From positions 1 to 37,488 of the forward strand of contig MHGT01000032.1 in NCBI GenBank assembly GCA_001805695.1: a stretch of 37,488 nt of DNA, in the 5' to 3' direction. Shown in pieces: positions 1,399 to 27,284 of this stretch (position 1 is the first letter of the stretch; each line of letters starts with the position of its first letter). The notes beneath the pieces are model-generated. The model had not been told where the DNA came from, did no database searches, and saw only the letters and a program-made list of their open reading frames with translations. A program made the translations under genes and the position numbers. The DNA is from Omnitrophica WOR_2 bacterium RIFCSPHIGHO2_02_FULL_67_20 (GTDB taxonomy: Bacteria > Omnitrophota > Gorgyraeia > Aquiviventales > Aquiviventaceae).

Positions 1399-1638
1399 AT
1401 GGAATTGACCCCACAAGAGGCTGAAATCTTGACCGTTGAGGAGCTTCACGGCTACCTCAAGATCCCCAAGCCGACGCTCTACGCCCTGGCGCAGAACGGC
1501 CGCATCCCGGCCGCCAAGGTCGGCAAGCACTGGCGCTTCCGCCGCAGCGACATCGACGAGTGGCTCAAGGCCCAGCAGTGGAACCGCCCCCTCCAGCGCA
1601 GACAGCGAAAGCCGGCCATCCATGCCGCCAACCAGTAA
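1399..1638 (+). CDS. Small helix-turn-helix DNA-binding protein (excisionase-family / HTH_17-like)
   Basis: 79 aa. LTVEELHGYLKIPKPTLYALAQNGRIPAAKVGKHWRFRRSDIDEWL matches the excisionase-type HTH pattern. Its stop overlaps the start of the next gene. Confidence 0.7.
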   Translation: MELTPQEAEILTVEELHGYLKIPKPTLYALAQNGRIPAAKVGKHWRFRRSDIDEWLKAQQWNRPLQRRQRKPAIHAANQ

Positions 1639-2872
1639 CCGCGTCGCCATCACCGGCCTGGGCGTCATCTCCGCCATCGGAGCGGGGAAAGAGGCGTTCT
1701 GGGACTCGCTCAAGGCCGGCCGGTCCGGCATCAAACGGGTCAGCAAGTTCGACCCCACCCCGTACCCCACCCAGTTCGCCGCCCAGCTCAACGGCTTCGA
1801 CTTCAGCCCGTTCATCGACCCGAAATGGTCGCGCCGCATGGACCTCACCTCCCAGATGGCGGTGGCGGCCGCGAAGATGGCGGTCAAGGACGCCGCACTC
1901 GACCTCGACCAGGAGGACCGGGAGCGCATCGGGGTGGTGGTGGGGACCGCCATGGCGGGCCATGCCTTCATTCTCGAGCAGCACGACGTCTACAAGGAGA
2001 AGGGGCCGATGCGCATCAACCCCTTCACGGCGCTCACCGTGTTTCCCGATGCGCCGGCCAGCTTCATCTCCATCGAGCTGAGGCTTCACGGGCCGAGCTT
2101 CTCGCTGGCGACCGCCTGCTCCTCGGCGCTCGACGCGGTCGGCTACGCCTTCAACGCCATCCGCAAGAAGGAGCTGGACGTCATCCTCATGGGGGGTGCG
2201 GAGGCGACGGTGTTCCCCCAGGCCTTCTCCGCCTTCTGCATGCTGCGGGCGATGTCCCAGCGCAACGACGACCCGGAGCGCGCCTCGCGCCCCTTCGACA
2301 AGGAGCGCGACGGCTTCGTCCTGGGCGAGGGGGCGGGGATGCTCGTCCTCGAGGACCTCGAGCACGCCAGGAAGCGCGGCGCCCACATCTACGCCGAGAT
2401 CGTGGGCTTCGGCATGACCTGCGACGCCTACCACATGACCGCCCCCGAGCCCTCCGGCCGCCAGGCCGCGCGCGCGATCAATATTGCGCTCAAGGATGCC
2501 GGGATCAAGCCCGCCGACATCGACTACATCAACGCCCACGGCACCTCGACCCCGCTCAACGACAAGACCGAAACATTCATCATCAAGCAGGTCTTCGGCC
2601 GGCATGCGTACCACGTGCCGGTGTCGGCCACCAAGTCCATGATCGGCCACCTCATCGGGGCGGCAGGCGCCGTCGAGCTCATCGCCACCACCCTCGCTTT
2701 GGAGCACCAGGTCATTCCGCCCACCATCAACTACGAGATCCCCGACCCTGAGTGCGACCTCGACTACGTCCCCAACGTCGCGCGCAAGGCCACCATCGAT
2801 TTCGCGCTGAAGAACTCGTTCGGCTTCGGCGGCAAGAACTCGGCGTTGGTCGTGAAGAAATATGAAGCATAA
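1622..2872 (+). CDS. Beta-ketoacyl-ACP synthase II paralogue (FabF-like KAS)
   Basis: The ATG at 1622 gives MPPTSNRVAITGLGVISAIG. Cys-His-His triad contexts are present: ATACSSALDAV, NAHGTSTPLND, KSMIGHLIGAAG. 416 aa. The ORF-track start at 1436 is an upstream extension overlapping the HTH gene. Confidence 0.9.
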   Translation: MPPTSNRVAITGLGVISAIGAGKEAFWDSLKAGRSGIKRVSKFDPTPYPTQFAAQLNGFDFSPFIDPKWSRRMDLTSQMAVAAAKMAVKDAALDLDQEDRERIGVVVGTAMAGHAFILEQHDVYKEKGPMRINPFTALTVFPDAPASFISIELRLHGPSFSLATACSSALDAVGYAFNAIRKKELDVILMGGAEATVFPQAFSAFCMLRAMSQRNDDPERASRPFDKERDGFVLGEGAGMLVLEDLEHARKRGAHIYAEIVGFGMTCDAYHMTAPEPSGRQAARAINIALKDAGIKPADIDYINAHGTSTPLNDKTETFIIKQVFGRHAYHVPVSATKSMIGHLIGAAGAVELIATTLALEHQVIPPTINYEIPDPECDLDYVPNVARKATIDFALKNSFGFGGKNSALVVKKYEA

Positions 2873-2875
2873 GGA

Positions 2876-2950
2876 GATTCCGCAGATTTCGAGGTGATTT
2901 CGCCGATTATGAGGTCTATCTGCGAAATCAATCCACAATCTGCGAAATCC
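2876..2950. repeat. Tandem ~9-mer (GATTTCGCA-like) imperfect palindromic element
   Basis: Sequence: gattccgca gatttcgag gtgatttcgcc gatt ... atctgcgaaatc aatccaca atctgcgaaatcc. TGATTTCGCCGAT pairs with ATCTGCGAAATCA with one mismatch. The element starts 4 nt after the KAS stop. Confidence 0.6.
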
Positions 2951-2986
2951 ATTTACATGCAGTTCTTGAATCAGTAGGAGGATACC

Positions 2987-3997
2987 GTGCCGGCCAAGTG
3001 CCCGCTTTTCCATAACCCGAAGATCCTCTGCCGCATCAAGCCGGAGAGCCAGCACCGGTGGGTGGGGACGGAGCGCACGTGGTACATCCGCAACTACTGC
3101 GAGGCGGACTACTACGTGGACTGCGAGGACTTCGAGGCCTACCTCGAGCAGCAGGCCATCGTGAAGGGCAAGATCCTCGTGGTGGACGACGAGACGGTCA
3201 TGCTCGAAACGCTCAGCAGCTTCTTCGGCAGCCGCGGCTACCAGCTCATGACGGCCGCCTCGGCCGAGGCGGCGCTGAAGCTCCTCTCCCAGGAGCAGCC
3301 GGCGTTGGCGCTCATCGACATCAAGCTGCCCGGCATGAACGGGCTGGAGCTGCTCAAGGTCATCAAGCGCGACTACCCGGCGGTGAAGCGATTTATCATC
3401 ACCGCCTACGACGAGGAGAACAAAAAAGCCGCCGAGGCGATCGGCATCGACGCCTTCTTCGCCAAGCCCATCGGCCTCGACGCGCTCAAGAAGAAGGTGA
3501 TCGAGGTCCTCGCCGACTTCGAGCGCCGGCTCGAGCAGCTCGCCAAGCGCGCTCCGGTCGAGGGCGTCCCGTCCGCGAAGCTGCTCTTCATCTCCGAGGT
3601 GCTCGCGCACGAGGAGGACCGGCTCACGCCGTACCTGCGCGCCTGCTTCACCGATGAGAGCCGCTGCGGCGGGCGCTACGAAGTCGAGTTCGCCCACGCC
3701 ATCAACGACGCCCAGCAGAAACTGATGTCGTTCAAGCCCGACATCGTCCTCATCAACTTCGACTCGCTCTACCAGATCCCCTGCGGCCAGATCGCCTCGC
3801 GCATCGTCGAGTCGCCCTATCGCCCCAAGGAGGTCATCGTCTACGGCCTCAACCTCGAGGCGGCGGACAAAGAAACCATCGAGCGCCTCGGCATCCAGTA
3901 CGTCGACCAACGCCGCTCGTTTGCAAAGTTGGTGACCACCGTAAGACAAACAGCCATGAGCTTAGATAGGTCAGCTTCGGGGTCTTCAAGGAGTTGA
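2987..3997 (+). CDS. Response regulator: Cys-rich N-terminal segment + REC + C-terminal pseudo-receiver-like domain, no DNA-binding output
   Basis: AGGAGG at 2976-2981, then GTG at 2987. REC: KILVVDDE...ALIDIKLPGMNG...FIITAY...FFAKP. The C-terminal half is REC-like, but DIVLINFDS has Asn where the phospho-Asp is expected. Confidence 0.8.
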   Translation: MPAKCPLFHNPKILCRIKPESQHRWVGTERTWYIRNYCEADYYVDCEDFEAYLEQQAIVKGKILVVDDETVMLETLSSFFGSRGYQLMTAASAEAALKLLSQEQPALALIDIKLPGMNGLELLKVIKRDYPAVKRFIITAYDEENKKAAEAIGIDAFFAKPIGLDALKKKVIEVLADFERRLEQLAKRAPVEGVPSAKLLFISEVLAHEEDRLTPYLRACFTDESRCGGRYEVEFAHAINDAQQKLMSFKPDIVLINFDSLYQIPCGQIASRIVESPYRPKEVIVYGLNLEAADKETIERLGIQYVDQRRSFAKLVTTVRQTAMSLDRSASGSSRS

Positions 3998-3999
3998 TA

Positions 4000-5289
4000 A
4001 TGGAGAGACGACGATTTCCTAGAGTTACAGCATGTCTGCCCGCTCGTTACTGGTTGTCGAGTCAATCTCCATCCGAAAGCCGCCCAGTCTTAATGGAGGA
4101 TATATCTGAGGGTGGTGCGCGACTCTCTACCACTGAACCTTTAATGATTGGACAGAAAATTCGGTTCGTGTTTGATGGAAATCAGTCCCGACAGAGCCTA
4201 TCAGAACTAAGCGGTATGGTCGCGTGGCAGGAAAACATCGTTGACTACTCAAATGGCGATTCAAGGGACACGGGAATAACTTTCGTCCCGAATGACCCAA
4301 TTACTAAGAACAGAATTAAGCAATGGTTGCTAAAAAGAGAAGTGGTCCCACGACCTCAACTCGATGAGGCTGAACCATCAACCCGCATCGAATCGGCGTA
4401 TGACAGTTCGACAGTTACCTTCAAAGTCTTAAGGGCTTTTGGGTGGGGTCCCTTGATTAATCTTGGTTATTTTCGGTTTCCCTCACCTCTTAGCGCGCTG
4501 AACCTGCTATACAATTTCGCCTTTTTGAAGACGGCCAACATGCTGCCAAGAGCACAAGTTCGATTGGCGAGAAAATCCTTCGAGTTCTTAGACATTCAAG
4601 CAGAAGACGACGTCTTAGACATAGCATGCGGAAGAGGGTACGGCTCCTTCATGATGGCCTGTTCATATCCCAAATCAAGGGTAACAGGGATTGATTTGTT
4701 AACTAACCACATCAGAGTCGCTTCCGCTCTCTATGGGAACGTTGGCAATCTAAGATTCAAATACGGTGATGCGCTAAGCCTGCCATTTGAGAGCGTCAGC
4801 TTTGACAAGGTGTTATGTCTAGAGGCGGCCTTTCACTTTGCAGATCGAGGGAGATTTCTCAAGGAAGCTTATAGAGTCTTGAAAGAAGATGGACGGTTAG
4901 TTGTGGTCGACTTTGCGTGGAAGACTGAGGAAGATCGACGGATCCTTGAAGATGAACCCACACGCTTCGTCCGACGTGAGTGGCAATGGGATGATTTTTT
5001 CTCTGTCGGCGAATACCTAAGGTCAGCGACGTCCGTTGGATTTGAAGTTGAAGGATGTCACAAGTGGGGCAGAAAAGTCACAGGTCCGATCCAGTGCATC
5101 TTTAATACCATTGGGGAAGCTGGGCGGTGGAGTTGGAGTCGTACTGTTATCCACCGCTCCAATCCACTGTTGTATAGCTTAACGGACAACGACTGGGCAA
5201 ACCTCCGTTACTCTGCCAGGGCACATAACTATGTTCGACGCCACGTTGAGTACCTAGTGCTTGTTCTAAAAAAGACGAGCGGTAAGTGA
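4000..5289 (+). CDS. PilZ domain fused to a class I SAM-dependent methyltransferase
   Basis: AAGGAG-6 nt-ATG at 4000. PilZ motifs: RRFPR (RxxxR) and DISEGG (DxSxxG). Methyltransferase motifs: VLDIACGRGYG, VTGIDL, DKVLCLEAAFHF, LKEDGRLVVVDF. Low-GC codon usage. Confidence 0.85.
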   Translation: MERRRFPRVTACLPARYWLSSQSPSESRPVLMEDISEGGARLSTTEPLMIGQKIRFVFDGNQSRQSLSELSGMVAWQENIVDYSNGDSRDTGITFVPNDPITKNRIKQWLLKREVVPRPQLDEAEPSTRIESAYDSSTVTFKVLRAFGWGPLINLGYFRFPSPLSALNLLYNFAFLKTANMLPRAQVRLARKSFEFLDIQAEDDVLDIACGRGYGSFMMACSYPKSRVTGIDLLTNHIRVASALYGNVGNLRFKYGDALSLPFESVSFDKVLCLEAAFHFADRGRFLKEAYRVLKEDGRLVVVDFAWKTEEDRRILEDEPTRFVRREWQWDDFFSVGEYLRSATSVGFEVEGCHKWGRKVTGPIQCIFNTIGEAGRWSWSRTVIHRSNPLLYSLTDNDWANLRYSARAHNYVRRHVEYLVLVLKKTSGK

Positions 5290-6452
5290 AAACTTCAGTG
5301 CCAAGACCCATAGAACGGACAGCACTCGTTACGGGAGGAACCGGCTTGCTGGGTCCCTGGCTAGTGCACGCTTTACTAAACCAAGGGTATCGAAAAATTT
5401 TTGTTTTGGCTAGGGCAAAGGGAAAAACTTCTGCGGAGAATCGGGTATCCGAGGCACTAAAATTTTGCAGAAACGGGAGAGAAATTAGAGGGGCAGACAA
5501 GACAGTTCAAGTGGTGTGCGGTGATATTTGTGAACCCAACCTAGGTTTGTCGCTCCAATTACGTAACGATCTCTTACGACAAATCACAGATATTTTTCAT
5601 ACCGCAGCACGAACCGACCTAAACGCTCCTCTCAACGCTCTTCGCCTCCCCAACGTCGTAGGAGCAGAGAATGTATTTAGACTAGCTTTGCATGGTAGTC
5701 AGCTAAACGGCCACACAATTCGCGTCCATCATGTTAGTAGTGTCACCGTTGCTGGCAATTTGCAGGGATGGTTTTCAGAAAGTCAATTTAGTTGCAGCCA
5801 GCGCTTTCACAATGCATATGAGCAGACCAAGTTCGAGGCGGAACAACTCGCCCTGGAATACAGAAACAAAGGTCTGAACGTTGCAATTTACAGACCAGGA
5901 ATTATCACGGGTGATTCTGTTCGCGGTACCACAAGTGGTTTCAAGGTGATTTACCAGCCTTTACGGTTCCTGGCGCATAATTTGTTTAATGAGTGGCCTG
6001 CGCGTGAGGATGCGCCGCTCTCCTTGGTGCCAGTTGATAAAGTTGCTGAGGCGCTTTGCCTTCTTTCTTGGGTTGAGTATCCATTGCGAGGGGCATGGCA
6101 TCTGGTCAATCCCGAAGATACTACTTTGGGAAAATTAATTGATGTAGGAATACAAGTGTTTGGGTGTCACAGGCCTGCCCTGATCCCGGCGGAGCATTTC
6201 AACAAATCACGATTCTCTCTTACTCAGTGGCGGCTAATTGGACCGTTTGTTCCGTACTTGAACTACCGCGTAAGATTTAGTTCAAGCTATACGAAAGAAG
6301 TATTAAACAAAGCAGGATTTAAATGGCCGAAGATGGATAGTGGCATGCTGGGAAAGTTGTATCGGTACTGCGGCAATTCAGGCTTCATTCGGCCACGCTC
6401 TATAGTTCCCGCTCGGAAGACGTTTTCCTCAATATTTGGAAGAACCAGATGA
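5286..6452 (+). CDS. Stand-alone thioester-reductase / fatty-acyl reductase-type extended SDR (NAD_binding_4-like)
   Basis: GTGA start/stop overlap with the upstream gene. ALVTGGTGLLG Rossmann motif, IFHTAA, VHHVSSVTV, YEQTKFEAE (YxxxK), AIYRPGIITGDS, SLVPVD. Low GC. Confidence 0.75.
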   Translation: MKTSVPRPIERTALVTGGTGLLGPWLVHALLNQGYRKIFVLARAKGKTSAENRVSEALKFCRNGREIRGADKTVQVVCGDICEPNLGLSLQLRNDLLRQITDIFHTAARTDLNAPLNALRLPNVVGAENVFRLALHGSQLNGHTIRVHHVSSVTVAGNLQGWFSESQFSCSQRFHNAYEQTKFEAEQLALEYRNKGLNVAIYRPGIITGDSVRGTTSGFKVIYQPLRFLAHNLFNEWPAREDAPLSLVPVDKVAEALCLLSWVEYPLRGAWHLVNPEDTTLGKLIDVGIQVFGCHRPALIPAEHFNKSRFSLTQWRLIGPFVPYLNYRVRFSSSYTKEVLNKAGFKWPKMDSGMLGKLYRYCGNSGFIRPRSIVPARKTFSSIFGRTR

Positions 6453-8584
6453 ACACCTTTGCTTTTTCCGGGCTCTTAACCAGTTTAGCGAGTCTCGGTA
6501 TTGGCGCGTGGGTCTATTTCAGCAACCGAACCAATTGGCTTAATCAGCTATGGAGCATGTTCTGCATCACGGTCGCTATCTGGGGACTTGGAGGGTTGCA
6601 AATTGGCCTAGCTTCAAATTCAGAAACGGCGTTGCTTTGGTGGCGCATAACCTATGTTGCCGTGATCCTCATACCCTCAATTTTTTATCACTTTGTCATC
6701 GTGTTTCTTGGAATTCGGCGTCCCATTACAGTCATCCTCGGATACTTACTAAGTTCCGGATTTTTAATCACAGATGCGACCCCCTTACTTATTGCGAACG
6801 TAGACAAAATTTTTAAGAATCTCTACTACGTCACTAAGCCAGTAGGGGTCGCCTATCCTGCGTTTGTCTTATTTTTTATCGGCATGGTTGTCCTAAGCCA
6901 TGTCGAGCTATGGCGGTACATGGGGAGGACAGCTGGTAATAAGCGTCGGCTCCAAGTTAGATGGTTTTTTTTAGCAGGTATTGTTGGATACATTGGGGGT
7001 ATTTCTTGTTTCCTTCCCGTCTTCGGGTTCAAGCTATATCCATATGGCAACTTCACAGTTCCTTTATTTCCTATTTTCCTGAGCTATGCCATCTTTCGTT
7101 ATCAACTTATGGACATCGAAGTTATTATCAAGCGGACCCTGGTGTTTGCGGGGCTTGTGGGATCCGTGGTGGCGGTGGTGGCGTCGATGGCGTTCGTCAC
7201 GCAGGATCTGCTGGCGCGATTCGTGGCGACGCCCCGGTGGCTCTCGAACGTGCTGGCGGCGATGGTCATCGCCGGGGTGTATGGCCCGCTGCGCAACTGG
7301 CTGGTGAACGTGACGGACCGGTTCCTCTTCCAGAAGAAGTACGACTACAAGGAGCTGCTCAAGAAGTTCACCGACGACGTGATGGTCATCGTGGACTTGA
7401 AGCAGCTGCTCCAGACGACGGTGACGACGCTCTCCGATACGGTGAAGCTGGAGAGCTGCAGCCTGCTGCTGCTGAACAAGGACACGCAGACGTATGAGCT
7501 GGCCGCCTCGCGCGGGACGAACGGCCGCCGGCTGGCGCTGGACGAGCAGGAGCCGTTCATCCGGTTCTTCCGCGAGACCCATGAGCCCATTGGCCTGGAT
7601 GGCTCGCTGGGGCAGGTGCGTTTCCCGGAGGCGGTGACGGGGCGCCTCAAGGAGCTCAACGCGCGGCTGTGCCTGCCGCTCCATCTCCATGAGGACCTCA
7701 TCGGCGTCCTGTGCCTGGGCAAGAAGAAGTCGGACGAGGAGTTCACGAAGGACGACTTCGACATCCTCCTCCCCCTGGCCCGCACGCTGGCGATCGCGGT
7801 GAGCAACGCCCAGCTCTTCGACGAGCTGGCCAAGACGCAGGCCGAGGCGGCGCAGAGGGAGAAGCTGGCCGTCATCGGCACGCTCTCCGCCGGCATCAAC
7901 CACGAGATCTGCAATCCCCTCGGCATCATCAAGGCGCAGTGCGAGGCGTTCCTGATGGACCTGGAAGACGGCATCCTCATCGGCAAGTCGCCGAGCGACC
8001 TGCTCAACCGGACCTCCTCCATCCTGCAGGTGGCGCTCAAGCAGATCGACCGCGCGACCGCCATCACCCAGAAGCTCTCCAACTTCGCCAAGCCCATCAA
8101 GGACCCCTCGATCCAGCCGGTGTCGGTCGAACAGGAGGTGGGGGAGGTGCTCCTGCTGGTCGGCCACGACCTCACGCTGGAAAAGATCGCCTTCGAGCAG
8201 GAGATCCCGCCGGATCTGCCGTCCATCACCGTGGACCGCCGCCAGTTCCAGGAGGTGCTCTTCAACCTCATCCGCAACGCGGCGCAGGCCATCACGCCGC
8301 CGGGGACGATCCGGGTGAGCGCGCGCGCGCACGAGGACGGCCGGGTCCGCATCGAGATTGAGGACAGCGGCAGCGGCATTCCCCCCGACAAGCTGGGCAA
8401 GATCTACGACCCCTTCTTCACGACGAAGGAGCCAGGCAAGGGCACCGGCCTTGGGCTCTTCATCGTCCGCCAAATTGTGGAACGCAATCGAGGGCGGATC
8501 GCGGTGGAGAGCGCGGTGGGGAAGGGGACGGTATTTTTTCTCGACTTTCCGGTGGCACGAGAGGTTCCCGCCAAGGCGGGGTGA
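6449..8584 (+). CDS. Multi-pass membrane sensor histidine kinase (7TM-type N-terminus + GAF + HisKA + HATPase_c)
   Basis: ATGA overlap with the upstream gene. About 9 hydrophobic helices, with a FRYQLMDIEV motif after helix 7. GAF-like KLESCSLLLLNKDTQTYELAASRG...LCLGKKKSDEEF. H-box LSAGINHEICNPLGI. NLIRNAAQAI, DSGSGIPPD, GTGLGLFIV. Confidence 0.9.
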   Translation: MNTFAFSGLLTSLASLGIGAWVYFSNRTNWLNQLWSMFCITVAIWGLGGLQIGLASNSETALLWWRITYVAVILIPSIFYHFVIVFLGIRRPITVILGYLLSSGFLITDATPLLIANVDKIFKNLYYVTKPVGVAYPAFVLFFIGMVVLSHVELWRYMGRTAGNKRRLQVRWFFLAGIVGYIGGISCFLPVFGFKLYPYGNFTVPLFPIFLSYAIFRYQLMDIEVIIKRTLVFAGLVGSVVAVVASMAFVTQDLLARFVATPRWLSNVLAAMVIAGVYGPLRNWLVNVTDRFLFQKKYDYKELLKKFTDDVMVIVDLKQLLQTTVTTLSDTVKLESCSLLLLNKDTQTYELAASRGTNGRRLALDEQEPFIRFFRETHEPIGLDGSLGQVRFPEAVTGRLKELNARLCLPLHLHEDLIGVLCLGKKKSDEEFTKDDFDILLPLARTLAIAVSNAQLFDELAKTQAEAAQREKLAVIGTLSAGINHEICNPLGIIKAQCEAFLMDLEDGILIGKSPSDLLNRTSSILQVALKQIDRATAITQKLSNFAKPIKDPSIQPVSVEQEVGEVLLLVGHDLTLEKIAFEQEIPPDLPSITVDRRQFQEVLFNLIRNAAQAITPPGTIRVSARAHEDGRVRIEIEDSGSGIPPDKLGKIYDPFFTTKEPGKGTGLGLFIVRQIVERNRGRIAVESAVGKGTVFFLDFPVAREVPAKAG

Positions 8585-8680: not shown

Positions 8681-9067
8681 ATGGATGCAGCAAGGCCAGT
8701 CTTGGTGGCGATTGACGACGAAGTCGAGTTCACCAAGGCGATCGAGTCGTTCTTCGGCGCGCGCGGCTACGACGTGCGCGTGGCGCTCACCGGTCCCTCG
8801 GGTCTCGCCCTGGTGGATGCGCACAAACCGCGGGTCGTGCTCGTGGACCTGAAGCTGCCCGGCATGGACGGGGACGAAGTCCTCCAGCGCATCCGGCGCG
8901 CGCATCCCCAGACGCGCGTCATCATCATCACCGCCTACAACGACGGCGGTGTGACGCGCGAGCGGCTGCTGCGCGCGGGCGCCTTCGCCCACTTCGACAA
9001 GCCGCTTTCCTCGCTGCGGGACCTGGCCGCGGCGGTCCAGCGCGCACTCGCAGCACCGGAGCCATGA
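8681..9067 (+). CDS. Single-domain response regulator (REC only)
   Basis: VLVAIDDE...VVLVDLKLPGMDG...VIIITAY...HFDKP. 128 aa. Confidence 0.9.
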   Translation: MDAARPVLVAIDDEVEFTKAIESFFGARGYDVRVALTGPSGLALVDAHKPRVVLVDLKLPGMDGDEVLQRIRRAHPQTRVIIITAYNDGGVTRERLLRAGAFAHFDKPLSSLRDLAAAVQRALAAPEP

Positions 9068-10626
9068 GCGCCATGTCCGCCACCCTCCTCGAGCGGATCG
9101 TCTTCAAGCGGCTGGACCCTGCCAAGGTCGCCCTCTTCGTCGCGCTCTACGGCGTCGTCCTCGCCGTCCCGACGCTCCTCTTCACCCTCGGCTCGGCCTG
9201 GCTGCGCGGCCATTTCCCGAGTGTCTGGTGGATGATCCCGCTCGCCTTCTTCGGCCTGCTCGCCCTGCTGGCCCCGCTGGCCTACTTCGCCCTCCTGCGC
9301 CGGATGGAGTGGGCGCTCATCCGGGACCAGCGACGCTACCACCACACGCTGATCGGCGCCTCGAGCGGGATGATCCGCATCAAGGAGATCCAGCGGCTCT
9401 GCCGGCTCATCACCCACACCGTCAACCGCACCGTCGGGCTGACCAACACGGCGCTCTTCCTCTACGAGCCGAAGGAGCAGCGCTACGTCCTGCAGGCGGT
9501 GCGGTACCAGTCGCACCTGCCGCCGGAGCTCTCGGTGGACCAGGCCGACCCGCTGGTGCGGCGGCTCGAGGCCAAGAAGGATTTGCTGGTGGTGGACGAG
9601 CTGCGCGAGGCATCGGAGGCGGAGCTGCGGCGCGGGGAGGGCCGGGACCGGACCGCCGAGCAGGTGTACGGCTGGATGCGCCGCGTCGAGGCGCGGCTCA
9701 TCGTGCCGAGCTTCTCGAACGAGCGGCTGCTGGGCTTCCTCGCGCTGGGCGAGAAGCGCAGCCGCGAACCCTTCACGACGGACGATTTGGCCATCTTCTC
9801 CGGACTCGCCAACCAGGCGGCCCTGGCGCTTGAGAACGCCATGTTCTTCGAGGAGCTGCGCGCGAACGAGGTGTTGATCATCCAGTCGGAGAAGCTTGCC
9901 AGCCTCGGCCAGCTGGCCTCCGGCATGGCGCACGAGATCCACAACCCGCTGACCATCATCTCCGGCGAGTCGCAGCTCTACCTGGAGCGCTTCCGGGGCC
10001 AGGACGCGCAGGTGGACAAGCTGCTCCTGAGCATCATCGAGGAGTGCAAGCGGGCGGCCGACATCACCCGCCGCATCCTGCGCTTCGCCAAGCCCGCGCC
10101 CCCGGACGTCAACGCGGTGGACCTGAAGGCGACGGTGGAGGAGAGCCTGACGCTGGCCGGCTACCAGGTGCGGCTGGAGCGGGTGCAGTGCGTGGTCAAC
10201 ATGCCGGACCAGCTCCCCAAGGTGCGCAGCAACCAGAACCAGCTCCAGGAGGTCCTGCTGAACCTCATCCTCAACGCCTGCCAGGCGATGGGGGAGAAGG
10301 GCGGGCGGCTCGCGCTCTCGGCCCACCCGAACGGCTCTTCCGTCGTCCTCAAGGTGGAGGACAACGGCCCCGGCATTCCGGCCACCGCCCTCCGGAAGGT
10401 GTTCGACCCCTTCTACACGACGAAGGAGACGGGGACCGGGCTGGGCCTTTTCGTGACCCAGCGCATCATCCAGTCGCACGGCGGCACGATCGAGCTGGAG
10501 TCCGTCGAGGGCAAAGGGACTTGCTTCACGGTCCGTCTGCCGGTCTGGGAGGAGGGTGCGGCCACCGTGGCCCAGCCGGCGGCGGGCTCGGCCGAGGCGC
10601 CGGAGCCAGGAGGGGGCCCCGGATGA
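9064..10626 (+). CDS. Membrane sensor histidine kinase (2-3 TM + GAF + HisKA + HATPase_c)
   Basis: ATGA overlap with the RR gene. H-box LASGMAHEIHNPLTI. NLILNACQAM, DNGPGIP, GTGLGLFVT. Its juxtamembrane and GAF region is paralogous to the kinase at 2-1252. Confidence 0.9.
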   Translation: MSAMSATLLERIVFKRLDPAKVALFVALYGVVLAVPTLLFTLGSAWLRGHFPSVWWMIPLAFFGLLALLAPLAYFALLRRMEWALIRDQRRYHHTLIGASSGMIRIKEIQRLCRLITHTVNRTVGLTNTALFLYEPKEQRYVLQAVRYQSHLPPELSVDQADPLVRRLEAKKDLLVVDELREASEAELRRGEGRDRTAEQVYGWMRRVEARLIVPSFSNERLLGFLALGEKRSREPFTTDDLAIFSGLANQAALALENAMFFEELRANEVLIIQSEKLASLGQLASGMAHEIHNPLTIISGESQLYLERFRGQDAQVDKLLLSIIEECKRAADITRRILRFAKPAPPDVNAVDLKATVEESLTLAGYQVRLERVQCVVNMPDQLPKVRSNQNQLQEVLLNLILNACQAMGEKGGRLALSAHPNGSSVVLKVEDNGPGIPATALRKVFDPFYTTKETGTGLGLFVTQRIIQSHGGTIELESVEGKGTCFTVRLPVWEEGAATVAQPAAGSAEAPEPGGGPG

Positions 10627-10727: not shown

Positions 10728-11822
10728 ATGGTAAAACTCCTCGTTGCTGACGACGAGCAGAAAATCTGCCGGCTGTTGGAGTCGTTTTTTGCCGAGCGGG
10801 GCTACCGCGTCCTGCTTGCGCATGACGGCCCCTCGGCCCTCTCCTGCATCCGTCAGGAGCGCCCCCACCTGGTGTTCCTCGACCTCCACATGCCCGGCCT
10901 CGACGGCCTGGACATCCTCAAGGAGACCCGGGCGTTCGACGAGACCATCAAGATCATCGTCATCACGGCGGTCGAAGATGCCGAGGTCATCGAGCAGGTC
11001 AAGCTGCTCGGGGCGGCCGACTACGTGATCAAGCCGTTTAGCCTGGAGTATCTGCAGGAGGAGGTGCTGGCGAAGGTCAGCACCTCGCTCTATGAGGACC
11101 TGCGCTCGGCCAACCAGGAGTTGAAGCGGTCGCTCGAGGAAATGCGCCAGGTGACGCGCGGCATCGTCGGGGCGTTTTCGCTCGTCATCTCGAAGATCGA
11201 CCCGCATTACACCCACGAGCACGTTTCCCGCAGCGTAGAGTACGCGAGCAAGATCATCGCCCGGCTGCGGCAGGAGGGGATGAGCTTCGACGGCATACCG
11301 GATGAGCTGCTCCTCGCGGGCATCCTCCTCCACGATGTCGGCAAGATCTTCACGCCCAAGGAGATCCTCTTCAAGCCCGGGCCGCTGTCCGACGAGGAGT
11401 GGCGGATCATGCGCCGCCATCCGGTCGACGGGGCCGAGATCCTGGAGCAGATCACCGGCCTGCAGGAGATGTCCAAGATCGTCCGCTACCACCAGGAGGC
11501 CTACAACGGCTCCGGCTATCCGGAGGGGCTTAAGGGCGAGGAGATCCCCATCGGGGCGCGCATCGCCACCGCGGTGGACGCCTTCGACGCGATGATCACC
11601 GACCGGCCCTACCGGAAGGGCATGCCCATCGAGAAGGCGATCGAGGAGCTCAGGCGCAACCGGGGCATCCAGTTCGACCCGCAGGTGGTGGACGTCATCG
11701 TCAGCCTCTCCGAGGAGGGCACCCTCAAGCCGGCTCACCTGCCCGACTCCAGCCACAGCATCGGCAGCAACGGGGCGGCGTCCGCCCGGCCGGACGGCAC
11801 GAACCACCACCCGCGCGCCTGA
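10728..11822 (+). CDS. Response regulator with HD-GYP output domain (RpfG-like c-di-GMP phosphodiesterase)
   Basis: REC: KLLVADDE...LVFLDLHMPGLDG...IVITA. HD-GYP: LLHDVGKI, RRHPVDG, YHQEAYNGSGYPEGL, DAFDAMITDRPYR. Confidence 0.9.
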   Translation: MVKLLVADDEQKICRLLESFFAERGYRVLLAHDGPSALSCIRQERPHLVFLDLHMPGLDGLDILKETRAFDETIKIIVITAVEDAEVIEQVKLLGAADYVIKPFSLEYLQEEVLAKVSTSLYEDLRSANQELKRSLEEMRQVTRGIVGAFSLVISKIDPHYTHEHVSRSVEYASKIIARLRQEGMSFDGIPDELLLAGILLHDVGKIFTPKEILFKPGPLSDEEWRIMRRHPVDGAEILEQITGLQEMSKIVRYHQEAYNGSGYPEGLKGEEIPIGARIATAVDAFDAMITDRPYRKGMPIEKAIEELRRNRGIQFDPQVVDVIVSLSEEGTLKPAHLPDSSHSIGSNGAASARPDGTNHHPRA

Positions 11823-13108: not shown

Positions 13109-14347
13109 ATGAGGCGGGTTGTGGTGACAGGATTGGGTGCCGTGACGCCGGTGGGGAACGACGTCCCCGCCATGTGGGCGGCGCTCCTGGCCGGCAAAAG
13201 CGGTGTCGGCCCGATTCAGAGCTTCGACGCCTCCGCCTTCGAGTCCCGCATCGCCGCTGAGGTCAAGGGCTTCGACCCCGCGTCGTACATCAGCCCGAAG
13301 GAGATCAGGCGCACCGAGCGGTTCACGCAGCTGGCCATCGCGGCGGCAACGCAGGCGGTCCGGCAATCCGGCGTCAGCATCGAGCGCGAGGACCCGTTCC
13401 GCTGCGGCGTCATCATCGGCTCCGGGATGGGGAGCATGCACCTCATCGAGGAGCAGCACAGCGTCTACCTGGCCAAGGGGCCGAAGAAGCTCACCCCCTT
13501 CATGATCCCGATGCTCATCTGCAACATGGCGCCGGGCCACGTCGCCATGAACCTCGGTTTCAAGGGCCCCAACTTCTGCACGACGACCGCCTGCGCCTCC
13601 GGCGCCCACGGAGTGGGCGAGGCGTTCCGCATCATCCAGCGGGGGGCGGCCGACGTGATGCTCGGCGGCGGCACGGAGAGCTGTGTGAGCCCGATGGCGG
13701 TGGGCGGCTTCTGCGCGCTCATGGCGCTCTCCCGCCGCAACGGCGAGCCCGCCACAGCCAGCCGTCCCTTCGATCGGGAGCGCGACGGCTTCGTCATCGG
13801 CGAGGGCGCCGGCGTCCTGGTCCTGGAAGAGCTGGAGCACGCGAAGAAGCGCGGGGCCGCGATCCTCGCCGAGATGGCGGGCTACGGGCTCACCGCGGAC
13901 GCCTACCATATGACCGCACCCGACCCGGAGGGAACCGGGGCCGCCAAGGCGATGGCGCTGGCGCTGGAAGATGCCCGGATGCGGCCCGAGGACGTCACCT
14001 ACCTCAACGCCCACGGCACCTCGACCGAGCTCAACGACAAGATTGAAACGCTGGCGATCAAGAAGACCTTCGGCCCGGCCGCCAAGACGGTGGCGGTTTC
14101 TTCCACGAAATCCATGACCGGCCACCTGATCGGCGCCGCGGGCGGTGTGGAGGCGGTCATCTCGGTCCTCGCCATCACCGACGGCGTCATGCCCCCCACC
14201 ATCAACTACGAGCACCCGGACCCCGAGTGCGACCTCGACTACGTCCCCAATCACGCCCGGCGCGCCGCGGTCAAGGCGGTGCTCTCGAACTCGCTGGGGT
14301 TTGGGGGACATAACGCGACGGTGATTTTTAGGAAGTTTCACGGCTGA
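13109..14347 (+). CDS. fabF: Beta-ketoacyl-ACP synthase II
   Basis: RRVVVTGLGAVTPVG, TTTACASGAHGV, NAHGTSTELND, KSMTGHLIGAAG. Canonical fabG-acpP-fabF order. Confidence 0.95.
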   Translation: MRRVVVTGLGAVTPVGNDVPAMWAALLAGKSGVGPIQSFDASAFESRIAAEVKGFDPASYISPKEIRRTERFTQLAIAAATQAVRQSGVSIEREDPFRCGVIIGSGMGSMHLIEEQHSVYLAKGPKKLTPFMIPMLICNMAPGHVAMNLGFKGPNFCTTTACASGAHGVGEAFRIIQRGAADVMLGGGTESCVSPMAVGGFCALMALSRRNGEPATASRPFDRERDGFVIGEGAGVLVLEELEHAKKRGAAILAEMAGYGLTADAYHMTAPDPEGTGAAKAMALALEDARMRPEDVTYLNAHGTSTELNDKIETLAIKKTFGPAAKTVAVSSTKSMTGHLIGAAGGVEAVISVLAITDGVMPPTINYEHPDPECDLDYVPNHARRAAVKAVLSNSLGFGGHNATVIFRKFHG

Positions 14348-23896: not shown

Positions 23897-24491
23897 AGAA
23901 AAGCTGCTGAAGCTCATCCGGGGCAAACCCGCCCGGTCCGCCACCGAGGCCGCGGCGTTCCCGCGCCCCGGCCAGCTCATGACCGCCTCCAGCCAGGCGG
24001 CGAAGGCCCGGGTCTTCCGCTCACCCGCGCGCGCGCCGGGATGGCCGACGATCGCCATGTGCGTGTTGGGGGCGTTCCTGGTCGTCGAAGTCATCGTGCT
24101 TATCGTCCAGGTGCTCCGCCCGCTGCCACCGGTGCTGCTGCCGGTCGAAGCGGCGGCTTCGCTGCCGGTAGCACTCCCGTCCCCTCACGAGCTGCCGTCG
24201 CTCAGCGCCAGCGTGCCCAGGACCGTCTTCGCGCCGAGCGCCGCGGCACCGGCGACAGGCGCCGCAGCCGCCCCGCTCAGCACATCGACCAAGCTCCTCG
24301 CCGCCCGCCTGACGCTCATGGGGATCGTCGCAGGCGACCCGCCGCAGGCGATCATCGAGGACTCCGAGACGAAGAAGACGTTTTTCGTGACCGCCGGCCA
24401 GATGGTGATCGAGGACGCCGTTGTCGAGCAGGTGCTGGACAGCCGCGTCATCCTCACGGTGGCGGGCGAAAAAATCGAGCTCTCGTTGTAA
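23862..24491 (+). CDS. GspC-like / PilP-like bitopic secretin-interacting protein
   Basis: One TM (IAMCVLGAFLVVEVIVLIVQVL), a Pro/Ala-rich linker, and a C-terminal HR-type beta domain (LTLMGIVAGDPPQAIIEDSETKKTFFVTAGQMV...VILTVAGEKIELSL). Confidence 0.6.
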   Translation: MSPDGFAKPPPEEKLLKLIRGKPARSATEAAAFPRPGQLMTASSQAAKARVFRSPARAPGWPTIAMCVLGAFLVVEVIVLIVQVLRPLPPVLLPVEAAASLPVALPSPHELPSLSASVPRTVFAPSAAAPATGAAAAPLSTSTKLLAARLTLMGIVAGDPPQAIIEDSETKKTFFVTAGQMVIEDAVVEQVLDSRVILTVAGEKIELSL

Positions 24492-24493
24492 GC

Positions 24494-26398
24494 ATGCCTC
24501 CAAAGCCGCCGCTCGGTTCAGGGTTCAGGGTTCAGGGTTCAGGGCAGACCGGTTCGCCCCGAACCCCGAACCCCCAACCCCCAACCCTTGCGAGTCTCGG
24601 CCTCGTGCTGCTCTTGCTCGGTGGAGCGGCAGGGCGGCTGATGGCGCAGCCGCCCGCGCCCCCGGTTCAAGAGGGACCGATCCGCGCCGGAGGGCGCATC
24701 TCGCTGGATCTTAAAGGCGTGGACATCCTCGATGTGCTCAAGCTGCTCTCCCAGAAGAGCGGGCTGAACTTCATCGCCGGGCGCAACGTCACGGGCCGCG
24801 TGACGATCTTCGTCGACGACGTGGACGTGTGGGACGCCTTCGAGCTCATCATCGGCGCCAACGATTTCGCGTATGAGCGGCGCGGCGACATCGTGACGGT
24901 GATGATGGCGCGCGACTACGAGCTCCTCTACGGGGAAAAGTTCCAGGTGCGCACCCAGACGCTCATCCAGCCGCTGAAGTACGCGAAGGGCTCGCCCGCC
25001 GCCGCCGTCCTCAACCAGATCAAGTCCTCCATCGGCCGCGTGGTGGTCGATGAGGCGACCGCCACGCTTATCCTCACCGATGTGCCGGCGAAGCTCGTCG
25101 AGATGCAGGGCGTCCTCAAGGAGCTCGACCGGCCGACCAAGACCCGCGTCTACAACCTCAACTACGCCGACGCGGAGAAGCTCAAAGAGAAAGTCCAGGA
25201 GCTGCTCTCGCCCGCCGGCACCTTCACGTTCGACACCCGGACCAACAAAGCGGTGGTCTCGGATCTCGAAGAGGTGCTCACGAAGGTGGACCGGATCGTG
25301 CGGGCGTTCGACGCCCCGGACGGCCAGGTGCTGATCGAAGCCAAGATCGTCAAGGTCGACCTCACCGACCAGATGGACCTCGGCATTGACTGGCAGCAGG
25401 TGTTCGCCGGCATCGACATGCAGACGCGCGGCAACTTCCGCGTGCTGAGCGACATCGTCGGCGGCGCCGCGACCGGCGGGGCGCTCAAGCTGCTGACGGC
25501 GCCGAAGGGAAACACGCAGGTCATCATCGAGGCGCTGAAAAAAATCACGAGCACCGACACGCTCTCCAGCCCCCGCATCATGGTCTCGAACAACCAGGAG
25601 GCGAAAATCCTTGTCGGGACCAAGGAGGCGGTCGTCACCGTGACGACGACCGTGCCGGCGACCGGCTCCACCGTCTCGGCGCCGGAGATCCAGTACGTGG
25701 ATGTCGGCACCAAGCTCTTCGTCACGCCGAGCATCAAGCGGGACGGCCACATCCAGCTCAAGGTCCGCCCCGAGGTGAGCACCTCCAAGGTCGAGACGTT
25801 CCAGACCAACCGCATCCCTATTGTGACTTCGACGGAGGCCGAGACAAACGTGCTCGTGAAGAGCGGGGTCACGCTCATCATCGGCGGCCTCATCGAGCAC
25901 AAGGACGAGCGGACGGAAAACCGCGTGCCCGTGTTGGGTGACATGCCCATCATCGGGGCGGCGTTCCGGGGCTCGACCGACTCGAACCGAAAGACCGAGC
26001 TGGTCGTCTTCCTGACCCCCCAGATCATCATGCCCGACGGCTCCGCCTATGCCGACAGCCCCCAGCCGTCGCCGGTCATCGAAGAACTGGAATCGAACGG
26101 CGGCCGCGCCTCGTCGCTGCCGCCCGCGTACCGTCAGGCGGTCCGCCGGCATCTGCAGGAGCGGTTGACCGACCGGCTGCGGCAGGCGTCGCTGCCGTCC
26201 GGCTCAGTGATCGTATCGTTCACGCTGGGGCGGGAAGGGCGGCTCATCGGCGCTCAGCAGATTATCAGCTCCGGGGGCGATGCCTTCATCCGGGCGGCCG
26301 CGGAGGCGCTCCAGCAGGCCGAGCCGTTCCCGCCGTTCCCGCAGGATTCGCCGGCGCATGAGGTCACGTTCCGGCTCGCCGTCGACTACACCCCGTAA
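24494..26398 (+). CDS. gspD: Secretin (GspD/PilQ family) with a C-terminal TonB/TolA-like domain
   Basis: N0-like: ISLDLKGVDILDVLKLLSQKSGLNFI. Secretin_N repeats: VYNLNYADAEKLKEKV. Secretin core: LSSPRIMVSNNQEAKILVG...RVPVLGDMPIIGAAFRG...ELVVFLTPQII. A C-terminal extension follows (see findings). Confidence 0.9.
   Translation: MPPKPPLGSGFRVQGSGQTGSPRTPNPQPPTLASLGLVLLLLGGAAGRLMAQPPAPPVQEGPIRAGGRISLDLKGVDILDVLKLLSQKSGLNFIAGRNVTGRVTIFVDDVDVWDAFELIIGANDFAYERRGDIVTVMMARDYELLYGEKFQVRTQTLIQPLKYAKGSPAAAVLNQIKSSIGRVVVDEATATLILTDVPAKLVEMQGVLKELDRPTKTRVYNLNYADAEKLKEKVQELLSPAGTFTFDTRTNKAVVSDLEEVLTKVDRIVRAFDAPDGQVLIEAKIVKVDLTDQMDLGIDWQQVFAGIDMQTRGNFRVLSDIVGGAATGGALKLLTAPKGNTQVIIEALKKITSTDTLSSPRIMVSNNQEAKILVGTKEAVVTVTTTVPATGSTVSAPEIQYVDVGTKLFVTPSIKRDGHIQLKVRPEVSTSKVETFQTNRIPIVTSTEAETNVLVKSGVTLIIGGLIEHKDERTENRVPVLGDMPIIGAAFRGSTDSNRKTELVVFLTPQIIMPDGSAYADSPQPSPVIEELESNGGRASSLPPAYRQAVRRHLQERLTDRLRQASLPSGSVIVSFTLGREGRLIGAQQIISSGGDAFIRAAAEALQQAEPFPPFPQDSPAHEVTFRLAVDYTP
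24515..24587. repeat. Heptamer-array palindromic element (GGTTCAG x4 / CCCCGAAC-CCCCAAC arm)
   Basis: Four perfect GGTTCAG units at 24515-24542. The right arm is ccccgaaccccgaacccccaacccccaaccc at 24557-24587. The element lies inside the secretin 5' coding region. Confidence 0.8.
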
Positions 26399-26486: not shown

Positions 26487-27284
26487 ATGACGACGAACGG
26501 CCTGAACGGGAAGTGGGCGCTCATCCTCGGCGCCTCCAGCGGATTTGGCGCCGCGACGGCCCGGGAGTTGGCCCGGCACGGCATGCACATCATCGGCGTG
26601 CACCTCGACCGGCGCTCGGCGCTGGCCGGCGTCGAGGAACTGGTCAAGGCGCTCCAGGATCAGGGCGTGCACACGCACTTCTTCAACGTCAACGCCGCCG
26701 ACCCGCTCAAGCGCCAGGAAGTGCTGGACCGGGTTCAGCCTGAGCTCGCCGGAGCACCCATCAGCGTCCTGCTCCACTCGCTCGCGTTCGGCACCCTCAA
26801 GCCGTACCTCGCTTCCGACCCCAAGGAACAGCTCACGAAGGATCAAATGGAGATGACGCTCGACGTGATGGCGAACAGCCTCGTCTACTGGGTCCAGGAC
26901 CTGGTGGGGCGCAAGCTGCTGGGCAAGGGCTCGCGCGTCTTCGCGATGACGAGTGCGGGCGGCACCCGGGTCTGGCCGACCTACGGGGCGGTGTCCGCGG
27001 CAAAGGCGGCGCTGGAGTCGCACATCCGGCAGCTGGCGATGGAGCTGGCCCCCTACGGGGCGACGGCGAATGCCGTCCGCGCCGGCGTGACCGACACGCC
27101 CGCCCTGCGCAAGATCCCGGGGAACGAGCAGATGATGGAGTTCTCGAAGGTGCGCAACCCCCACCGCCGGCTCACCGCGCCGGAGGACGTGGCCCAGGCC
27201 ATCGCCGTGCTGGCCAATGCCGGGGCGGACTGGGTGACGGGCAACACCATTGGCGTGGACGGCGGCGAGGATATTGTTGGCTGA
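26487..27284 (+). CDS. SDR-family oxidoreductase, FabL-like (possible enoyl-ACP reductase)
   Basis: GGAGGAGGA RBS. ALILGASSGFGAA, YGAVSAAKAALE (YxxxK), NAVRAGVTDTPALRKIP, VTGNTIGVDGG. The resemblance to B. subtilis FabL is from memory only. Confidence 0.6.
   Translation: MTTNGLNGKWALILGASSGFGAATARELARHGMHIIGVHLDRRSALAGVEELVKALQDQGVHTHFFNVNAADPLKRQEVLDRVQPELAGAPISVLLHSLAFGTLKPYLASDPKEQLTKDQMEMTLDVMANSLVYWVQDLVGRKLLGKGSRVFAMTSAGGTRVWPTYGAVSAAKAALESHIRQLAMELAPYGATANAVRAGVTDTPALRKIPGNEQMMEFSKVRNPHRRLTAPEDVAQAIAVLANAGADWVTGNTIGVDGGEDIVG

Follow-up and report, generated by a model that had tools for sequence, protein, structure and literature searches.

Why should a PilZ domain, the kind of module that binds the second messenger cyclic di-GMP (c-di-GMP), be joined to a methyltransferase, and what could such an enzyme do among genes for signal transduction? 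These questions are raised by a gene of Omnitrophica WOR_2 bacterium RIFCSPHIGHO2_02_FULL_67_20 located at positions 4000..5289 on the forward strand of contig MHGT01000032.1, of which the 37,488 nucleotides analyzed here (the window) represent a chromosomal stretch with a GC content of about 65-66%. The gene, a stop-free open reading frame of 429 amino acids that we denote PilZ-MT, encodes a PilZ domain (residues 2-111), a linker (113-125), and a class I S-adenosylmethionine (SAM)-dependent methyltransferase (126-429). The initial annotation of this DNA, made from the sequence alone, recognized the fusion and missed its main context: the gene is part of an AT-rich cassette that is exchangeable and in which the sensor domain of a histidine kinase is encoded as well. 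This context, an exchangeable biosynthesis-plus-sensor cassette set in a conserved, c-di-GMP-linked two-component frame, is more notable than the fusion itself.

The fusion protein and its two domains

The ATG codon of PilZ-MT at 4000 is preceded by a GGAG (3990-3993), the preceding gene stops 2 nucleotides before it (3997), and the start of the downstream reductase gene (5286) overlaps its 3' end by 4 nucleotides; this spacing indicates translational coupling. Both signatures of the PilZ family, R4-R5-F6-P7-R8 (RxxxR) and D34-I35-S36-E37-G38-G39 ([D/N]hSxxG), are found where the initial annotation had placed them, and the N-terminus scores as PilZ: the Pfam profile PF07238 matches residues 2-111 (E 1.3e-11; 45.1 bits vs a gathering cut-off of 22.5) over profile positions 1-101 of 102. 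R4, R8, D34, and G39 do not vary among 16 full-length homologues (37-66% identity to PilZ-MT), with S36 replaced by G in some; R4 and R8 are also invariant across 17 homologous PilZ domains, the mean identity of which is only 40%.

Comparison of the PilZ profile with Protein Data Bank sequences gave marginal matches alone (E 0.04-0.2), so that a fold search was needed instead. In the AlphaFold2 model of the whole protein (predicted local distance difference test, pLDDT, 90.2), six strands and a helix (residues 100-112) are followed by the disordered linker and a Rossmann-type methyltransferase. A separate model of the PilZ domain shows the same six strands and helix, as expected of a PilZ beta-barrel. 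Foldseek, run with this PilZ-only model, retrieved PilZ structures exclusively, with template modelling (TM) scores of 0.6-0.73 (MotI, BcsA, Alg44, YcgR, VCA0042, MrkH, and the MapZ entries 5xly and 5y4r), most of which were solved with c-di-GMP. Judged by its score, by the presence and conservation of both motifs, and by its fold, the domain thus behaves in all computational tests as a functional PilZ domain. Canonical PilZ domains carrying both motifs bind c-di-GMP, according to the review by Galperin and Chou, and the canonical-looking domain of PilZ-MT is predicted from sequence and model to be competent for such binding, so that control of the methyltransferase by c-di-GMP can reasonably be proposed.

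Some degenerate PilZ domains are c-di-GMP-independent, and the domain could similarly be an adaptor that docks the methyltransferase to a partner. This would agree with PilZ being the most divergent piece of the protein (51% and 36% identical in two of three relatives and undetectable by tblastn in the third), with the replacement of S36, and with the lack of an encoded diguanylate cyclase in the window. We nevertheless consider an adaptor unlikely, given that four motif residues stay invariant in a domain of such low mean identity, that a second family of fusions (PilZ-MT2, see below) keeps the same motifs, invariant or nearly so, and that the closest structures are all c-di-GMP-binding PilZ domains.

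The remainder of the protein is, as the initial annotation had it, a complete class I methyltransferase with a Rossmann-type fold. The motifs VLDIACGRGYG, VTGIDL, DKVLCLEAAFHF, and LKEDGRLVVVDF are in place, Methyltransf_11 matches residues 206-302 (E 2e-20), and Methyltransf_25, Methyltransf_31, and Methyltransf_12 likewise exceed their Pfam cut-offs, these generic class I profiles all falling at about residues 200-320. G211, G213, and D232 of the SAM site, which include the acidic residue at the end of strand 2, show no variation among the 16 full-length homologues or in a set of 68 sequences, and pLDDT is above 90 over most of residues 140-429. The top Foldseek matches of the methyltransferase are AtmM, RebM, MitM, TleD, SpnF, and a geranyl diphosphate (GPP) C-methyltransferase, GPPMT (target-normalised TM about 0.75); by sequence, residues 126-429 match RebM, AtmM, MitM, TleD, and GPPMT with E values of 7e-19 to 1e-15 at an identity of only 16-24%, and the stretch LEAAFHFxDRG resembles LESLHHMPDRG of RebM. 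The catalytic domain accordingly appears closest to the RebM/AtmM-like, small-molecule natural-product type, and enzymatic activity is predicted. None of the five enzymes matched by sequence contains a PilZ domain, and their substrates (sugars, aziridine, indole terpenoid, and GPP) are no reliable guide to that of PilZ-MT.

The resemblance to cyclopropane-fatty-acid (CFA), tocopherol, or sterol-type methyltransferases that the initial annotation had perceived did not hold up. In the NCBIfam scan, no model reached its cut-off with PilZ-MT; the best matches were mycobacterial lipid O-methyltransferases (Rv2952-type phthiotriol, 64.3 bits vs 300; Mtf2, 58.7 vs 400) along with the UbiE/MenG family, also sub-cut-off, and CFA synthase scored 25 bits vs 400. 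The Pfam CMAS profile passes its cut-off (38 bits vs 27), yet the match is partial (profile positions 31-190 of 273). By the NCBIfam cut-offs, PilZ-MT does not belong to the CFA-synthase, UbiE, tocopherol, or Rv2952 families. The link of PilZ-MT to lipids comes from its neighbours rather than from the methyltransferase: the thioester reductase, the acyl carrier protein (ACP) and fatty-acid-CoA-ligase-like AMP-ligase of its relatives, and FabF.

The AT-rich cassette and its conserved frame

The variable cassette extends over ~3.1 kb (3956..7084, +) and consists of PilZ-MT, a stand-alone thioester/acyl reductase of the NAD_binding_4 family (5286..6452, +; Pfam E 6e-53; 142 bits with the NCBIfam thioester-reductase domain, under the cut-off of 213), and the 5' part of a 7TM-GAF-HisKA-HATPase histidine kinase gene (6449-8584, +) that codes for the seven-transmembrane (7TM) region. 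The cassette-borne, hypervariable membrane sensor of this kinase is a HisKA_7TM domain (6449..7120, +; Pfam PF16927); the GAF-HisKA-HATPase cytoplasmic part (7121..8584, +) belongs to the frame, and it is at the junction between the two, within the kinase gene, that the right edge of the cassette falls. The GC content of the cassette is 47% vs about 65% in the flanks, the dip extending from roughly 3950 to 7100, and the GC content at third codon positions is 0.48 in PilZ-MT and 0.44 in the reductase gene, vs about 0.90 in the genes nearby.

The operon begins, behind a promoter-like site detected by a promoter scan (1267-1296), with a gene for a small DNA-binding protein of the HTH_17 family (1429..1638, +), assigned from gene calls in related loci (L001, L004, L009, and L010) and from its translation. 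The left flank continues with a FabF paralogue, a beta-ketoacyl-ACP synthase II (1622..2872, +; NCBIfam fabF 569.5 bits vs a cut-off of 493.75), which is 87-94% identical across loci, and with the left anchor of the cassette, a response regulator of 336 amino acids that we call REC336 (2987..3997, +; Pfam receiver at residues 63-171). REC336 has no known output domain: residues 168-336, scanned alone, match no Pfam family, and residues ~195-320 resemble, by eye, a second, degenerate receiver. Its N-terminus, ahead of the receiver domain, is unusually Cys-rich (CPLFHNPKILC...YCEADYYVDCEDF). The right flank encodes a single-domain response regulator (REC; 8681..9067, +; Pfam; 68-79% identical across loci), a GAF histidine kinase (9064..10626, +; Pfam), and a REC-HD-GYP response regulator (10728..11822, +; Pfam HD_5 E 8e-34) with both the HD (ILLHDVGK) and the GYP (NGSGYPEGL) motifs intact, a probable c-di-GMP phosphodiesterase that is 70-84% conserved in L007, L017, L045, and L057.

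Related loci were sought by scanning GTDB genomes and JGI metagenomes with REC336, which yielded 67 loci (designated L and a number) with REC336 orthologues at 71-91% identity, one outlier (L089, 56%) being excluded; those with names are mostly from Candidatus Omnitrophota. In the homologous PilZ-MT loci, for example, L007 from an Omnitrophota metagenome-assembled genome (MAG), the gene order is REC336, PilZ-MT, reductase, and 7TM kinase, with ACP optionally before and AMP-ligase optionally after the reductase. The frame proteins of related loci are close to those of the window: about 90% identity for FabF, 82-83% for REC336, 72-80% for the cytoplasmic part of the kinase, 84% for REC-HD-GYP, and 87% for FabG. 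The cassette proteins are much less conserved: the values in the three relatives mentioned above are 69, 59, and 45% (methyltransferase), 63, 52, and 43% (reductase), and 74, 54, and 49% (7TM domain).

Roughly 35 loci contain enough downstream sequence for the segment from REC336 to the conserved kinase core to be typed, and five types of cassette can be distinguished. Type A, found in the window, L007, L009, and L010, consists of PilZ-MT, (ACP), reductase, and (AMP-ligase). The commonest, type B, has the arrangement ketosynthase (KS)-FabG-(ACP)-FabA-KS-flavin adenine dinucleotide (FAD) oxidoreductase, with or without a 370-aa protein, type C (L015) encodes a type I polyketide synthase (PKS) of 2,596 aa, type D (L017 and L039) encodes an ICMT/PEMT-type membrane methyltransferase and a KS, and type E (L037) has a 478-aa PilZ-MT2 fusion at the same position as the PilZ-MT of the window.

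The sensor domain varies with the enzymes. All six distinct A cassettes encode PilZ-MT and the reductase and end in a 7TM domain of the window type, and the two of them that sit in a different frame (L032 and L033) keep this enzyme-7TM linkage. Among 22 loci compared, identity between 7TM domains is 49-74% within type A and 18-33% between types, and that between the cytoplasmic parts of the kinase is 64-84% throughout, whichever the cassette. The mosaic is apparent along a single polypeptide: compared with kinases associated with other cassette types, that of the window is 13-40% identical over residues 1-210 and 60-96% thereafter. The synteny between L017 and the window extends on both sides up to fabG, and yet L017 contains a D cassette, and L034, with flanks 90% identical to those of the window, has a B rather than an A cassette. 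Over 1,439 bp that cover the end of a KS gene, REC336, and 270 bp more, L037 and L039 have an identity of 99.2%, beyond which they are unrelated, and the D cassette of L039 is 92% identical to that of L017 over 2.9 kb including the 7TM segment, with flanks only about 80% identical (protein). The variable block thus covers the biosynthetic genes plus the membrane sensor of the kinase, with the kinase core and the regulators conserved, which is the division seen in agr/comQXP-type loci. From these comparisons, related Candidatus Omnitrophota genomes appear to exchange the cassette as a unit for other lipid or polyketide cassettes, each with its own 7TM domain, which suggests exchangeable signal-and-receptor sets; within-species allelic polymorphism of the cassettes is suggested as well.

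Several other features of the related loci were observed. The B-type cassette of L043 (8115-11042) lacks PilZ-MT and ends with a reductase (47% identical to that of the window) followed by a window-type 7TM domain (48%), which hints that the type of 7TM domain tracks a head group made by the reductase rather than methylation. In L010, HepT/MNT-type (HEPN plus nucleotidyltransferase) toxin-antitoxin genes and a HEPN gene lie amid the frame genes (2325-2953 and 15050-15451). One MAG (CAYNXT01) holds three REC336 loci (L014, L015, and L018) with different cassettes, and L034 and L039 contain tandem repeats of the REC336-kinase unit; hence, either the system is multi-copy per genome or bins mix strains.

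The GC content drops abruptly, from 65% to 47%, and one of the two junctions is intragenic; the low-GC stretch could be taken for an assembly chimera or an unrelated recent insertion that has no functional tie to the kinase. This explanation is effectively refuted. Six independent assemblies contain the gene, its context, and both cassette junctions at a nucleotide identity of 99.8-100%, so that the mosaic is real, not an assembly artefact, and the kinase reading frame is intact. Aligned with six related loci, the DNA of the window ceases to be homologous at 3942-3955, and homology resumes at 7085-7106 in loci with other cassette types and at 6943-7012 in those of the same type. In 14 of 14 non-redundant loci, among them the window, L007, L009, L010, L013, L015, L017, and L037, the GC content of the cassette is 5-19 points under that of the frame genes, and the same arrangement and dip recur in homologous cassettes whose proteins are 39-63% identical; at such distances, a simple recent transfer followed by amelioration is no explanation. 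The persistent AT-richness might be due to an external gene pool shared by the cassettes, to their escaping GC-biased conversion, or to selection.

The cassette ends contain no repeats, insertion sequence (IS) elements, or integrases, and no full-length relative was found on plasmids; on these grounds, insertion of the cassette by a mobile element was rejected. Given such ends, homologous recombination in the conserved flanks would be the simplest mechanism of exchange.

Related fusions and their genomic company

The initial annotation named no characterized PilZ-methyltransferase, and none is described in the literature that we searched. The fusion partners of PilZ listed in the review are REC, GGDEF, EAL, HD-GYP, MCP, CheC, HlyD, and glycosyltransferase domains, and a methyltransferase appears there solely as the trans partner of MapZ (CheR1). 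Literature searches on HisKA_7TM, on Methyltransf_20, and on Omnitrophota together with kinase and fatty acid found nothing relevant.

For a census of the architecture, we built a profile from the 16 fusions and used it to score the representatives of 1.84 billion clusters at 50% identity. Only 4 full-length representatives combine PilZ with this methyltransferase, which itself belongs to a small family (57 representatives at E<1e-30). With clustering at 90%, the fusions form about 17 clusters, and methyltransferase-only relatives (~310 aa) from Planctomycetes, Deltaproteobacteria, and others number more than 100. A PilZ-domain-only profile run against 5.8e9 sequences retrieved one 77-aa protein, the short domain being too weak for a census. 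The PilZ-MT architecture is therefore real, rare, and uncharacterized; the combination of PilZ with a methyltransferase as such is not unique, given that a second fusion family turned out to be common in Candidatus Omnitrophota.

This second family, PilZ-MT2, is represented in L037 by a protein of 478 aa (2686-4122) in which a PilZ domain homologous to that of the window (E 1e-9) is joined to a different, weakly scoring methyltransferase, MT2. Its relatives (P0268-P0387) fall into more than 100 clusters at 90% identity; most come from Candidatus Omnitrophota. They are not orthologous to PilZ-MT and are annotated only as 'PilZ domain-containing protein', with no function assigned. The family includes PilZ-MT2 (~455 aa), REC-PilZ-MT2 (587 aa), a 648-aa form, and MT2 alone; RxxxR and G39 never vary, nor do motif I and the acidic residue of the methyltransferase, and S36 is nearly invariant. 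The neighbours are again 7TM kinases and response regulators. In L109 (3995-9306), a FadL/Toluene_X outer-membrane channel, PilZ-MT2, a 7TM-GAF histidine kinase, and a REC protein are encoded in a module that looks like a minimal make-pass-sense unit for a hydrophobic signal. The pairing of a PilZ-methyltransferase with a kinase thus recurs in Omnitrophota as an uncharacterized theme, of which the window protein, with its RebM-like catalytic domain, is the rarer form.

Genes of both fusion families always lie among histidine kinases and response regulators, and the sole known link between PilZ and a methyltransferase, MapZ-CheR1, concerns protein methylation. PilZ-MT might then modify a protein of its own pathway, such as the adjacent kinase or response regulator, in a CheR-like adaptation under c-di-GMP, and would co-vary with the 7TM domain through docking on it. 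We regard this as very unlikely: both the fold and the sequence match small-molecule natural-product methyltransferases, not CheR, and the tight linkage to thioester reductase, ACP, and AMP-ligase places the enzyme among partners in small-molecule biosynthesis.

A possible c-di-GMP-gated signalling loop

In the working model that we lean towards, with a confidence barely beyond even, c-di-GMP gates the methylation of a fatty-acyl-derived molecule that is sensed by the 7TM domain of the same cassette. PilZ-MT is a genuine two-domain enzyme, a PilZ domain tethered by a flexible linker to a RebM/AtmM-like methyltransferase, the activity of which would change, in either direction, upon binding of c-di-GMP. 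The substrate would be a small molecule derived from a fatty acyl chain, reductively released and methylated; such an origin is likely given the coupled thioester reductase and, in the fuller cassettes, the ACP and AMP-ligase. These three proteins or, in the window, the reductase acting on acyl-ACP from fatty acid synthesis (FAS) could release a fatty aldehyde or alcohol for the methyltransferase to modify. The hydrophobic product may be the ligand of the co-inherited 7TM domain, sensing of which would drive the conserved phosphorelay including the REC-HD-GYP phosphodiesterase; the output of the latter would shift the c-di-GMP level and feed back on synthesis via the PilZ domain of the methyltransferase.

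Several observations weigh against this model. As indicated above, the window encodes no diguanylate cyclase. Its cassette also lacks ACP and AMP-ligase, which leaves the acyl donor in question. REC-HD-GYP belongs to the frame and is present with PilZ-less cassettes as well (L017 and L057), so that it is not specifically coupled to PilZ. Among the methyltransferase-only homologues, the reductase gene is adjacent in one case, a deltaproteobacterial MAG, and absent from the neighbourhood in the cultured planctomycete Schlesneria paludicola; hence, the pairing of methyltransferase and reductase is not universal. Finally, there is the persistently low GC content of the cassettes, and the apparent polymorphism may in part reflect paralogy and gene conversion, not allelic exchange, considering the multi-locus bins and tandem copies.

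The main rival is a role in tailoring of envelope lipids, not signalling. The cassettes would make or modify a structural lipid of the membrane or surface, for example, a methylated or methoxylated fatty alcohol or a polyene, with c-di-GMP coupling its synthesis to lifestyle switching and the 7TM domain monitoring membrane composition; the diversity of the cassettes would then result from diversifying selection on the surface of very small bacteria exposed to phages, hosts, or prey. Consistent with this possibility, all cassettes encode FAS- or PKS-type lipid enzymes, the locus lies beside housekeeping fabG-acpP-fabF genes and a FabI-like gene, the frame itself has a FabF paralogue, and the A cassette encodes no exporter. 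However, a sensor of the bulk membrane need not change with each enzyme set, yet the identity of the 7TM domain tracks the cassette type, and small modules of methyltransferase, kinase, and response regulator, such as that of L109 with its FadL-type channel, look like phcBSR-like signalling units. We accordingly rate a structural-lipid role as rather improbable, although less so than a ligand-independent PilZ domain, protein methylation, or an artefact.

The signalling model has partial precedents. In the Rpf/DSF (diffusible signal factor) system of Xanthomonas (RpfC-RpfG), a membrane kinase senses a fatty-acid-derived signal and is coupled to a c-di-GMP-degrading REC-HD-GYP protein, and a REC-HD-GYP protein with intact motifs is found in the conserved frame here; the locus differs in having no RpfF-type crotonase synthase and in that c-di-GMP would act back on the synthase via the fused PilZ domain. 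In agrBDCA, the signal genes and the sensor half of the kinase form a hypervariable block. The same holds for the ComQXPA pherotypes, in which the genes making the signal and the membrane sensor half of the kinase are hypervariable, and the kinase core and the response regulator are conserved (PMC4408185). The cassette of the window, with variable enzymes and kinase sensor half and a conserved core, follows this layout; the difference is that the agr and com signals are modified peptides and their variants are alleles, whereas in Omnitrophota non-homologous lipid and polyketide enzyme sets are swapped whole. In Ralstonia, the methyltransferase PhcB makes methyl 3-hydroxymyristate, which is sensed by the kinase PhcS, and the sequences of both group by signal type (PMC8578825). 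The phcBSRQ operon likewise combines a SAM-dependent methyltransferase, a membrane histidine kinase, and response regulators, a likeness of operon logic alone; PhcB has no reported PilZ domain, and cassette exchange with unrelated enzyme sets is not known for phc.

On the side of the enzyme, BcsA (cellulose synthase) and Alg44, which are among the best structural matches, also have a canonical PilZ domain with RxxxR and [D/N]hSxxG joined to, or within, a biosynthetic machine. The output domain of PilZ-MT is, unlike theirs, a soluble class I SAM-dependent methyltransferase, not a glycosyltransferase or secretion component; its PilZ domain is N-terminal, with a disordered linker, and its product is probably a small lipid-like molecule, not a polysaccharide. 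MapZ-CheR1 of Pseudomonas aeruginosa, the only described case of PilZ control of a methyltransferase and another structural match, differs in that MapZ acts in trans on a chemotaxis protein methyltransferase, whereas in PilZ-MT the domain is fused in cis to a methyltransferase of the small-molecule type. The system is best regarded as extending what is known of PilZ-gated enzymes and of specificity cassettes made up of synthase and sensor.

A bolder possibility, which we put forward only tentatively and consider doubtful, is that these loci of Candidatus Omnitrophota serve strain-specific chemical communication and are of a new kind, in which a conserved phosphorelay frame with several kinases and REC-HD-GYP accommodates interchangeable AT-rich cassettes, each encoding a different lipid or polyketide signal pathway and the 7TM receptor domain to match. 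The loop would run from signal to kinase, HD-GYP, c-di-GMP, and synthase, being closed by c-di-GMP-switched methylation.

Elsewhere in the window, the 3' part of another 7TM-GAF kinase gene is located at 77-1252. From 11940 onwards, the window contains fabG-acpP-fabF, a type II secretion/pilus-like cluster, an SMC gene with an intein, riboflavin genes, and nusB. The two FabF genes, that of the signalling frame (1622-2872) and that of the housekeeping fabG-acpP-fabF cluster (13109-14347), are 10 kb apart and about 50% identical; the FabI-like enoyl reductase is encoded at 26487-27284. The type II secretion/pilus-like cluster is headed by a GspE/PilB-type secretion ATPase (14530-16218; MshEN domain, 80 bits) and ends with a secretin (24041-26398). 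In the ATPase, the c-di-GMP-binding motif of MshEN occurs twice in tandem, as LGSLLVERGLLSAEELERALAEQ and VGTVLARLGLLAPERALPVLAEQ, and the protein is likely to be a second c-di-GMP receptor in the window. The SMC gene (27297-32561; 1,754 aa) includes, near the N-terminal ATPase head, an intein with a LAGLIDADG homing endonuclease; the splicing domain of the intein spans residues 45-598.

If c-di-GMP indeed binds and controls PilZ-MT, the outputs gated by PilZ would extend past polysaccharide synthases, motors, and transcription factors to SAM-dependent methylation of small molecules, and a second messenger would directly switch the chemistry of a lipid or signal. The organization of the cassette is of greater consequence than the fusion. 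Between conserved flanks, each set of enzymes seems to move along with the ligand-binding half of a histidine kinase. Such cassettes pair orphan sensor domains of the HisKA_7TM family, which have no known ligand, with candidate ligands, and the swappable frame is a ready design for engineering pairs of sensors and biosynthetic pathways. For Candidatus Omnitrophota, an uncultured phylum, the cassettes provide a testable model of specificity switching.

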